A stretch of DNA of 11,941 nucleotides from a virus (lineage: Duplodnaviria; Heunggongvirae; Uroviricota; Caudoviricetes): IMG/VR virus record IMGVR_UViG_2648501400_000008. One strand, given 5' to 3'. Every line of letters begins with the position of its first letter. Positions within the stretch are counted from its first letter, which is position 1. The notes below the pieces were generated by a model, which saw only the letters and a list, made by a program, of their open reading frames with translations, was not told where the DNA came from and searched no databases. The position numbers were made by a program, and so were the translations under genes. Of this stretch, positions 1,933 through 2,225 are shown piece after piece.

Positions 1933-1942
1933 TGCTAATTAC

Positions 1943-2128
1943 CTAGTCGAAAACTATATCAGTATTTATTATTTCAAAAAATGCATCAAGAATTTCTTTA
2001 TTTTTCTTTTTACTTTCAAATGAAATGACATTATCTTGATTAAATGTTGTTAATTCAATGCAGATAGAATCAACCTGATCATTGGCGGCGATGCTCGATT
2101 CTATTTCATTAAATGCTATTACATTCAT
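1943..2128 (-). CDS. Small acidic hypothetical ORF (61 aa) immediately upstream of and co-oriented with the deaminase; may instead be non-coding (see findings)
   Basis: ORF on the minus strand ending 10 bp before the deaminase start; the protein is D/E-rich (…NDQVDSICIELTTFNQDNVISFESKKKNKEILDAFFEIINTDIVFD). The ribosome-binding site is weak (GGATAAG-like) and the region is very AT-rich, so coding status is uncertain. Confidence 0.3.
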   Translation of the reverse strand: MNVIAFNEIESSIAANDQVDSICIELTTFNQDNVISFESKKKNKEILDAFFEIINTDIVFD

Positions 2129-2188
2129 TTATCTTATCCAAACATAATAAAAAACCATATGGCCTTTAGTGTACAACAAAACCATACT

Positions 2189-2214
2189 CTTTCCCCTCAT
2201 TTTAGAGGGGGAAG
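2189..2214. other. GC-rich stem-loop at the boundary between phage backbone and AT-rich cargo cassette
   Basis: TCCCCTC (2192-2198) / GAGGGG (2205-2210) stem with ATTTTA loop and a few extra flanking pairs; a T-rich run lies a few nt 3' on the minus strand. Orientation-ambiguous possible terminator. Confidence 0.3.
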
Positions 2215-2225
2215 TGTGGTCCACA

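Follow-up and report, generated by a model that had tools for sequence, protein, structure and literature searches.

The 11,941-nucleotide (nt) stretch of DNA analysed here (IMG/VR virus record IMGVR_UViG_2648501400_000008, referred to below as the window) belongs to an Escherichia coli prophage and carries an AvcID anti-phage cassette, which consists of the deaminase toxin AvcD and, directly upstream of avcD, the region of its AvcI-like antitoxin (positions 1933–2225). This region is probably a co-transcribed antitoxin leader that serves both as a functional RNA and as an mRNA, is read from the avcD strand and lies in a cassette between the prophage excisionase (xis) and integrase (int) genes. 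The anatomy of the region, its strand, the selection at the protein level, the covarying hairpin and the homology to the open reading frame (ORF) of enterotoxigenic E. coli (ETEC) were computed here, and the inhibition of AvcD, the activity of the antitoxin as RNA and its activation by transcription shut-off are taken from the literature on homologues. The elements most directly concerned are these:

2168–2173, minus strand: −10-like hexamer TACACT (TAnAnT), conserved; predicted avcI/avcD promoter, with a putative transcription start near 2161.
1943–2128 (stop included), minus strand: small ORF of 61 codons, with an acidic product that falls in PHROG family 9966; it forms the body of the avcI-equivalent transcript.
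2053–2114, minus strand: bipartite RNA hairpin of 8 + 8 base pairs with a 25-nt loop, from RNAalifold on ten lineages; it lies within codons 5–25 of the ORF.
1933–1945, minus strand: stop/Shine–Dalgarno junction, TAG followed by G and the 10-nt spacer; UAGG(U/A) is also the avcD Shine–Dalgarno sequence.
337–1932, minus strand: avcD, encoding a 531-aa anti-phage dCTP/dCMP deaminase (the toxin) whose N-terminal domain is P-loop kinase-like and whose C-terminal domain is the deaminase.

Judged from its substitutions, the small ORF evolves like a protein gene and is under frame-specific purifying selection. Homologous loci (numbered here with an L) were gathered through AvcD alone, and the sample is therefore unbiased toward intact small ORFs. 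They include Budvicia, Morganella, Pantoea-type, ETEC and metagenomic loci situated in prophages, small plasmids and conjugative elements. In every lineage with an AvcD 61–100% identical to that of the window the ORF is open, has 61 codons and ends 7–12 nt before avcD; in the L074 clade (AvcD 64% identical) it has 63 codons and a 9-nt gap. Its frame shows no stop codon in 11 lineages with DNA of 24–37% guanine plus cytosine (GC), against 3–14 stops in the other sense frames. The ORF of the window itself is 27% GC, with 8 and 13 stops in the other two sense frames and 2–4 in the antisense frames, and a 61-codon open frame is not expected by chance in such DNA. Changes at the three codon positions number 55/56/115 (p = 1.6e-7, by parsimony on the AvcD tree). 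Pairwise, L068 and L070 differ by 10/5/30, and the window and L068 by 15/16/32. The ratio of nonsynonymous to synonymous change (pN/pS) is 0.13–0.5 in frame versus about 1 in frames +1 and +2; the value for AvcD at these loci is 0.1–0.2. An antisense gene was considered as the cause of the 3-nt periodicity and rejected: there is no plus-strand ORF of at least 40 aa over 1943–2128, and antisense stops occur in almost every lineage.

The product of the small ORF, MNVIAFNEIESSIAANDQVDSICIELTTFNQDNVISFESKKKNKEILDAFFEIINTDIVFD, has 12 Asp/Glu residues against 4 Lys and a net charge of about −8, and matches phrog_9966 at 1.9e-43. Conserved motifs are VITF near the N-terminus and NVISFE at the centre, and conservation peaks over the last 25 residues, which end in an invariant ...F-D-stop (FD type; in the Vibrio, or W, type the ending is ...L-x-W-stop). 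The amino-acid motifs are kept where nucleotide similarity has vanished. An AlphaFold model predicts that VITF and NVISFE form paired strands lying against a helix. The peptide has no match in Pfam, NCBIfam, PADLOC or the PDB, and no DNA-binding or known antitoxin domain was recognised in it. A profile search of 1.84 billion representative proteins found two clusters only, the window family and the L073 type, with a profile of 75–100% identical sequences that is too narrow for wider reach.

The DNA surrounding this gene is AT-rich, with a GC content of 0.30–0.32 in the 300-nt segments covering 1933–2225. The small ORF begins with ATG and is the only one of at least 40 aa that fills the region. 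Its TAG stop is at 1945–1943 and the avcD ATG at 1932–1930, with the 10-nt spacer GTAATTAGCA between them; its own Shine–Dalgarno sequence (TTTGGATAAGATAAATG) is weak, and strong ones precede the ORF in ETEC, L074, L078 and L045. GATTAGG is invariant across all FD-type loci. The corresponding sequence is TAGGAG in L070 and TAGGTG in L073, each 6–7 nt from the avcD ATG. A type II-like architecture, in which a small protein gene comes first and its stop overlaps the avcD Shine–Dalgarno sequence at 7–12 nt, is found in all FD-type loci. The GAT-TAG-G junction probably couples translation of avcD to that of the small ORF, and a scan of the interval between the two genes saw no terminator-like site, which is consistent with their co-transcription.

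Two further features concern the start of the transcript:

2174–2223, minus strand: terminator-like 'boundary' hairpin followed by a U-run, recognised by its fold energy; it would insulate the cassette from the upstream xis operon.
2308–2337, minus strand: alternative sigma-70-like promoter, TTTACA-18-TAAAAT, with 10/12 positions matching, at the upstream edge of the AT-rich block.

The boundary hairpin, CTTCCCCCTC-TAAAAT-GAGGGGAAAG, is at 2214–2189, with outer pairs that extend to 2223–2178, and is followed by UUUUGUUG. Its fold energy is −22.3 kcal/mol (z = −3.15), and 0/200 shuffled sequences fold as well. Other lineages also have a G+C hairpin and then a T-run ahead of the −10 element. The −10-like hexamer is the sole upstream element kept in all ten alignable lineages, with T18, A19, A21 and T23 invariant; variants are TAGAAT in L016 and TAAAAT in L068 and L070. 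Vibrio loci show GTAGAAT or GTAAAAT, together with a good −35 sequence, at the same distance before their ORFs. From the putative start near 2161 to position 1933 the transcript would be about 230 nt, on the same strand as avcD, which fits the size expected of AvcI (about 170–300 nt). The promoter at 2308–2337 is a weaker candidate because it is conserved only among the closest relatives. It is followed by a short hairpin at 2285–2301 and could drive a longer leader. A promoter reported by the scanner inside the ORF (2058–2030) and an 88-aa ORF at 2226–2492 were both dropped, as neither is supported by homology or conservation.

A sequence-only reading of the window had described an AT-rich stretch of about 290 bp between this hairpin and the deaminase start, whose single ORF is 61 aa long, acidic, poorly supplied with a ribosome-binding site and ends 10 nt before the deaminase ATG. 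This description holds. The strand, which that reading had left open, is the minus (avcD) strand: the published orientation, the −10-like hexamer, the ORF and a covarying hairpin that prefers the sense strand agree on it.

That hairpin (2114–2053) is the one covarying structure that comparison across ten lineages of homologous loci brings out. In the alignment 95–96% of its cells are paired versus 33–46% when partners are slid by 1–3 columns. Seven to eight pairs are changed on both sides versus 0–3 in the slid controls, a number that 0–1 of 500 shuffles reach. One compensatory swap, GAA...GAT to GAT...GAA, exchanges Glu and Asp reciprocally between codons 10 and 20 without loss of pairing. 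The sense strand is 95.6% paired versus 82.5% for the antisense strand, where one pair is non-standard in all ten sequences. Entropy at third codon positions is lowest in the hairpin arms (0.60), against 1.17 in the loop and 0.94 elsewhere in the ORF, and between close pairs the ORF has diverged at synonymous sites about half as much as AvcD (0.14 vs 0.28; 0.12 vs 0.24). The hairpin is moderately supported as real but clade-specific. Tandem repeats are absent in 1850–2400, where short direct repeats occur at chance level only.

Homology at the protein level suggests a link to a tested antitoxin. A hidden Markov model (HMM) of the window clade gives the ORF of the ETEC avcI region a score of 15.0 bits, which none of 9,900 composition-matched shuffles attains, and detects the L074 and L075 ORFs at about 1e-6. 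A direct BLASTP comparison of the window and ETEC ORFs gives no significant match (E = 0.79), and the relationship is visible only by the clade HMM with shuffles. By this profile evidence the two ORFs appear to be members of the same small-protein family. The ORF regions of ETEC and Proteus mirabilis each neutralise their own AvcD, having been tested as ORFs behind a vector ribosome-binding site, and the ETEC antitoxin is reported to inhibit only its cognate AvcD (bioRxiv 10.1101/2021.03.31.437871). A P. mirabilis member of the window's exact clade exists and may be the tested AR379 allele.

The Vibrio systems are the best characterized. AvcI, first named DifV, is encoded immediately 5′ of avcD in the same orientation, is co-transcribed with it and overlaps a small ORF often annotated as hypothetical (bioRxiv 10.1101/2021.03.31.437871). 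In V. cholerae it is 20–60 times more abundant than the avcD message and coincides with a 174-nt ORF, and loss of 18 nt from its 5′ end or of 4 nt from its 3′ end kills activity (bioRxiv 10.1101/2021.03.31.437871). That the RNA binds AvcD and inhibits it after translation, independently of being translated itself, has been shown only for V. cholerae and V. parahaemolyticus, and in V. cholerae rifampicin or phage infection removes AvcI RNA and activates AvcD (bioRxiv 10.1101/2021.03.31.437871; PMC10511110).

The ORFs that underlie these RNAs encode 56 aa in V. cholerae and 58 aa in V. parahaemolyticus. W-type relatives are found in the V. harveyi group, Photobacterium, V. coralliilyticus, an IMG/VR contig and 4.6-kb Klebsiella/E. 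coli plasmids, and all W-type ORFs have 56–60 codons and end in ...L-x-W-stop (loci L080, L082, L089, L092, L093, L045 and L078). V. cholerae against the V. harveyi group gives codon-position counts of 17/7/28, with pN/pS of 0.34 in frame versus 0.92 and 1.19 off frame; for the two pairs with V. parahaemolyticus the in-frame ratios are 0.47 and 0.54. Because in-frame pN/pS in Vibrio is 0.34–0.54, the coding signature appears in the Vibrio AvcI ORFs too and is not peculiar to the clade of the window. The AvcI published as 'noncoding' thus probably also encodes a small protein. A homology between the FD-type and W-type families is suggestive only (hhalign P = 0.004; shuffle p = 0.006–0.05).

A mechanism can be put together from these elements. 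Transcription would start just past the −10-like element (2173–2168), behind the insulating terminator hairpin, and the transcript would consist of a leader of about 33 nt, the 61-codon ORF (2128–1943) and the 10-nt spacer, running straight into avcD. As mRNA it would be translated into the small acidic protein that is under purifying selection, and the overlap of the ORF stop with the avcD ribosome-binding site would couple the translation of avcD. As RNA, with its conserved 5′ hairpin, it would keep AvcD silent post-translationally, by homology with AvcI of V. cholerae, V. parahaemolyticus and ETEC. Once an infecting phage has stopped host transcription, the labile antitoxin would decay, and the freed AvcD would deaminate dCTP and dCMP and so starve phage DNA synthesis. 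For the window clade the Vibrio experiments, the hairpin and the truncating alleles described below speak for the RNA as the putative inhibitor of AvcD. Selection on the sequence of the peptide speaks for a contribution from it as well: it could act as a co-inhibitor, play a part in assembly or specificity, or work through coupling.

Several observations weigh against this dual role. With respect to the protein, start-to-stop AvcI and AvcI without a ribosome-binding site still block AvcD toxicity in V. cholerae (bioRxiv 10.1101/2021.03.31.437871), and spectinomycin does not activate AvcD there (bioRxiv 10.1101/2021.03.31.437871; PMC10511110). Because such constructs inhibit, and because spectinomycin is inactive while rifampicin activates, the V. 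cholerae peptide is not needed for inhibition. In the window the Shine–Dalgarno sequence of the ORF is weak, as mentioned, and the AlphaFold model of the peptide has a mean confidence (pLDDT) of just 51. With respect to the RNA, folding of the whole region is unremarkable (z = 0.11 for the sense and −0.02 for the antisense strand), and global stability therefore neither identifies a small RNA (sRNA) nor picks the strand. A search of window positions 1–3000 against Rfam, which contains no AvcI family, returned no family for the region at permissive thresholds, and gave sub-threshold chance hits such as isrC (17.9 bits against a gathering threshold of 39). The covariance model of the hairpin, R1, finds no match in ETEC, L074, L075, L077, L078 or the Vibrio loci, and the RNA element is therefore conserved only where AvcD is about 74–100% identical. 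Single-sequence folds of the non-matching ORFs have no common architecture; L075 alone has a similarly placed hairpin. It should also be pointed out that one 10-sequence alignment, with few independent lineages, served both to predict the hairpin and to test it. Since the arms of the hairpin encode conserved residues, selection on the protein may account for some of the conserved pairing.

The peptide is cut short in some natural alleles, whose carriers include GCA_002512515.1 and the ERR8218381 lineage. A nonsense change, E45* (GAA to TAA; window position 1996), is present in L010 and L088, and a T6-to-T5 frameshift (window positions 1976–1981) leads to a 52-aa product in L085 and L086. Both alleles lose or cut the most conserved C-terminal helix, leave the hairpin at 2114–2053 unaffected and stand beside an intact 531-aa AvcD; in L010 this AvcD is no different from the one in the nearest wild-type relative. 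AvcD can thus apparently be tolerated without the full peptide, as would be the case with an RNA inhibitor. The argument falls short of proof, since an early stop would at the same time uncouple avcD translation and lower it. Two other carriers of the T5 frameshift, L084 and L087, have a fragmented avcD.

Another allele, P0024, comes from a 616-bp ENA contig and is an in-frame fusion (window positions about 1925–1963) of the small ORF up to residue 56 with AvcD from residue 3, which arises from a deletion of about 37 nt over the junction. This is a single short contig that may be an assembly artefact; if real, it would be an antitoxin–toxin fusion.

The alternatives differ in what they make of the peptide. 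A pure protein antitoxin, of the type II kind, would mean that AvcD in this Enterobacterales clade is bound and neutralised by the acidic 61-aa protein on its own, with the RNA serving only as its message. Purifying selection at the protein level, the conserved length and position of the ORF, and the antitoxin-first layout with translational coupling would all agree with this. The ETEC and P. mirabilis rescues, performed with a vector ribosome-binding site, do not separate RNA from protein, and a low AlphaFold confidence is compatible with a fold that depends on a partner. We nevertheless regard a pure protein antitoxin as unlikely. A coding signature does not imply a protein antitoxin, because V. 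cholerae AvcI works untranslated and the Vibrio ORFs share the signature. The covarying hairpin and the constrained synonymous sites also speak against it, as does a peptide with no DNA-binding or known antitoxin domain. So does the coexistence of the E45* and frameshift alleles with intact AvcD, a point weakened by the possibility that lost coupling could lower AvcD synthesis.

Perhaps the RNA is the antitoxin and the ORF acts only in cis, as an upstream ORF that sets avcD translation or AvcI stability, with a free peptide that has no function. This could work by termination–reinitiation at the UAGG junction or by nascent-chain arrest through the conserved C-terminus. The overlap of the stop with the avcD Shine–Dalgarno sequence at a fixed 7–12 nt, the concentration of the strongest conservation in the C-terminal 25 residues and the viability of the truncating alleles are what such a leader peptide would lead one to expect. 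Coupling alone, however, keeps a frame open and would not constrain amino acids, and the conserved VITF and NVISFE, predicted as strands on a helix, resemble a small folded or binding domain and not an arrest motif. In Vibrio, moreover, the ORF stop precedes the avcD start by 44 nt or more, judging by the published 532-aa AvcD and the 77-nt gap to the called start, and direct occlusion is therefore improbable there. A leader peptide of this kind is improbable.

A purely noncoding AvcI sRNA with a fortuitous ORF is very doubtful. It would accord with the published description of AvcI, with the weak Shine–Dalgarno sequence of the window and with the Prokaryotic Genome Annotation Pipeline (PGAP), which leaves the small ORF unannotated in most E. 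coli genomes. Against it are the frame-specific excess of third-position changes, a pN/pS far below 1 in the ORF frame only, the absence of stops in all 11 AT-rich lineages and amino-acid motifs that outlast nucleotide similarity. The sequence-only reading had suggested an AvcI-like sRNA rather than, or as well as, a protein, and had counted among the refuting observations a 61-aa ORF that is conserved with a protein-coding substitution pattern and is required as a protein. Position, orientation and size do match published avcI, and the ETEC homology supports an AvcI-like partner. The substitution pattern goes against 'rather than', and 'as well as' is the best fit, as constraints at the RNA level are also present.

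That the ORF is an unrelated prophage cargo gene (a 'moron'), standing beside avcD with no role in its control, is scarcely credible, in spite of its having its own PHROG family of unknown function: it accompanies avcD into unrelated contexts, always directly upstream on the same strand at 7–12 nt, and the homologous ETEC region neutralises its own AvcD.

The preferred reading of a dual RNA and mRNA leader may extend beyond this clade. We propose tentatively, as a possibility and not as the expected outcome, that AvcI across gammaproteobacterial AvcID systems, including those of V. cholerae and V. parahaemolyticus from which the 'sRNA' model was derived, is a dual RNA and protein antitoxin, a hybrid of type III and type II, whose protein (56–63 aa, of FD and LxW types) is kept by purifying selection and has a share in the control of AvcD. 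The AvcID cassette itself is already known, its toxin is named by PGAP and an antitoxin region upstream of it is expected. What is new is that the AvcI ORF is gene-like in every lineage examined, Vibrio included, with fixed length and position, third-position changes and motifs shared with ETEC; no paper stating that the AvcI ORF is under selection was found in the searchable literature. AvcID is cited among the few phage defences with an RNA (type III-like) antitoxin, and this antitoxin is described as noncoding and dissimilar between species. The coding signal questions the noncoding description of the AvcID family and does not exclude the locus from that family. If the peptide is functional, the mechanism and classification of AvcID would need to be revisited, the ETEC and P. 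mirabilis rescues, which used translated constructs, would need to be reinterpreted, and the annotation of the ~60-aa 'hypothetical proteins' beside anti-phage deaminases would need revision.

The toxin gene is readily assigned. AvcD matches the PADLOC dCTPase model at 2.1e-164 over residues 10–529, the NCBIfam equivalog NF041025 (antiphage_deaminase) with 466.5 bits at a cut-off of 400, and Pfam PF00383 (dCMP_cyt_deam_1). PGAP names the protein 'anti-phage dCTP deaminase' in E. coli 1303 (100% identity). Both zinc motifs, HAEMD and PCHNC, are there, and the protein has the two domains of an AvcID toxin, a P-loop-kinase-like domain and a dCMP/dCTP deaminase domain. No full-length AvcD was found in the PDB. 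In the clade of the window the Walker A motif is GCGMRT (window positions 1792–1818, residues 39–47), where Arg replaces the canonical Lys of GCG[IM]KT found elsewhere. Because this Arg is kept in all members at least ~74% identical except P0040, it is probably functional and not a lesion. Two A8 tracts occur in the first 50 nt of avcD, at 1911–1918 and 1885–1892 (minus strand, codons 5–16). One of these is the site of a frameshift in L002 and L008, and L075, a homologue on a Providencia-type plasmid, has an apparent frameshift in an A-run at the avcD 5′ end. By their sequence the A-tracts may be slippage-prone on/off sites for the toxin.

The window is 100% identical to E. coli 1303, where it adjoins yjjG, and the same stretch is present in 49 of 5,426 complete E. 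coli genomes. Gene order on the minus strand is a DUF551 gene, the excisionase gene (2667–2473, phrog_1553), the AT-rich block and the 531-aa gene avcD (1932–337), which is convergent with the integrase gene. The GC content is 0.30–0.39 over positions 1–2340, which cover avcD, the antitoxin region and the end of the integrase gene, versus 0.45–0.58 in the prophage body, consistent with a cargo cassette placed between xis and int. The avcID pair is also found on small Rep3/Mob plasmids and beside TraU/DUF1525 conjugation genes. The small ORF and avcD occur together in prophages, on the 5.8-kb ETEC plasmid p58, on Rep3 plasmids and in TraU conjugative elements. A search of the phage GenBank collection gave no match to the cassette.

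In a group of bovine and produce E. coli (08-00022 and OkiPb strains) an IS1A copy is inserted at about 2183/2184, between the terminator-like hairpin and the −10 element, and removes everything upstream of a point about 55 nt before the small ORF. In E. coli 08-00022 (L002) and an IMG/VR prophage contig (L008) the first A8 tract of avcD also carries a −1 frameshift, and most OkiPb genomes match avcD no further than nt 1407. Decay of the cassette appears to be under way in the lineage that bears IS1A.

Among known systems, that of ETEC H10407 plasmid p58 is similar to the window in several respects. It has a 61-codon ORF, which ends 12 nt before avcD, the GATTAGG stop/Shine–Dalgarno junction and an upstream GTAGTAC −10-like motif, and the C-terminal halves of the two proteins align conservatively (NVISFE...KEILDAFFEIINTDIVFD in the window, NVVDFF...KETINSFDKILKKEIILD in ETEC). 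The AvcD proteins are 61% identical and the ORF products about 22%; nucleotide similarity is gone, and an equivalent of the hairpin was not detected in ETEC. The ETEC ORF has a strong Shine–Dalgarno sequence (AGGAG), unlike the weak one of the window, and the system is borne on a plasmid, whereas that of the window is borne on a prophage.

The AvcID (DcdV-DifV) systems of V. cholerae VSP-1 and V. parahaemolyticus have a two-domain AvcD that is 44–45% identical to that of the window. Like the window, they have the antitoxin locus directly 5′ on the same strand, overlapping an ORF of 56–58 codons, with a −10 element about 30–45 nt before the ORF and no tandem repeats. They show no nucleotide or covariance-model similarity to the window. 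Their small ORFs end in ...L-x-W-stop, in contrast to ...F-D-stop, and stop tens of nt from avcD, compared with 10 nt in the window, and their AvcI is described as noncoding.

Classical type III toxin–antitoxin systems (ToxIN, CptIN and TenpIN) resemble the window in having an RNA antitoxin upstream of, and co-transcribed with, a protein toxin, and the literature describes a labile RNA antitoxin and activation upon transcription shut-off induced by phage. The window differs from them in an antitoxin that has no tandem repeats, in a toxin that is a nucleotide deaminase and not an endoribonuclease, and in an antitoxin transcript that contains a selected ORF. Type II toxin–antitoxin operons, on the other hand, share with the window a small acidic protein gene that comes first and has its stop adjacent to or overlapping the ribosome-binding site of the toxin gene. 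Unlike type II antitoxins, the peptide of the window has no recognisable DNA-binding or antitoxin domain, and the homologous systems act as RNA.

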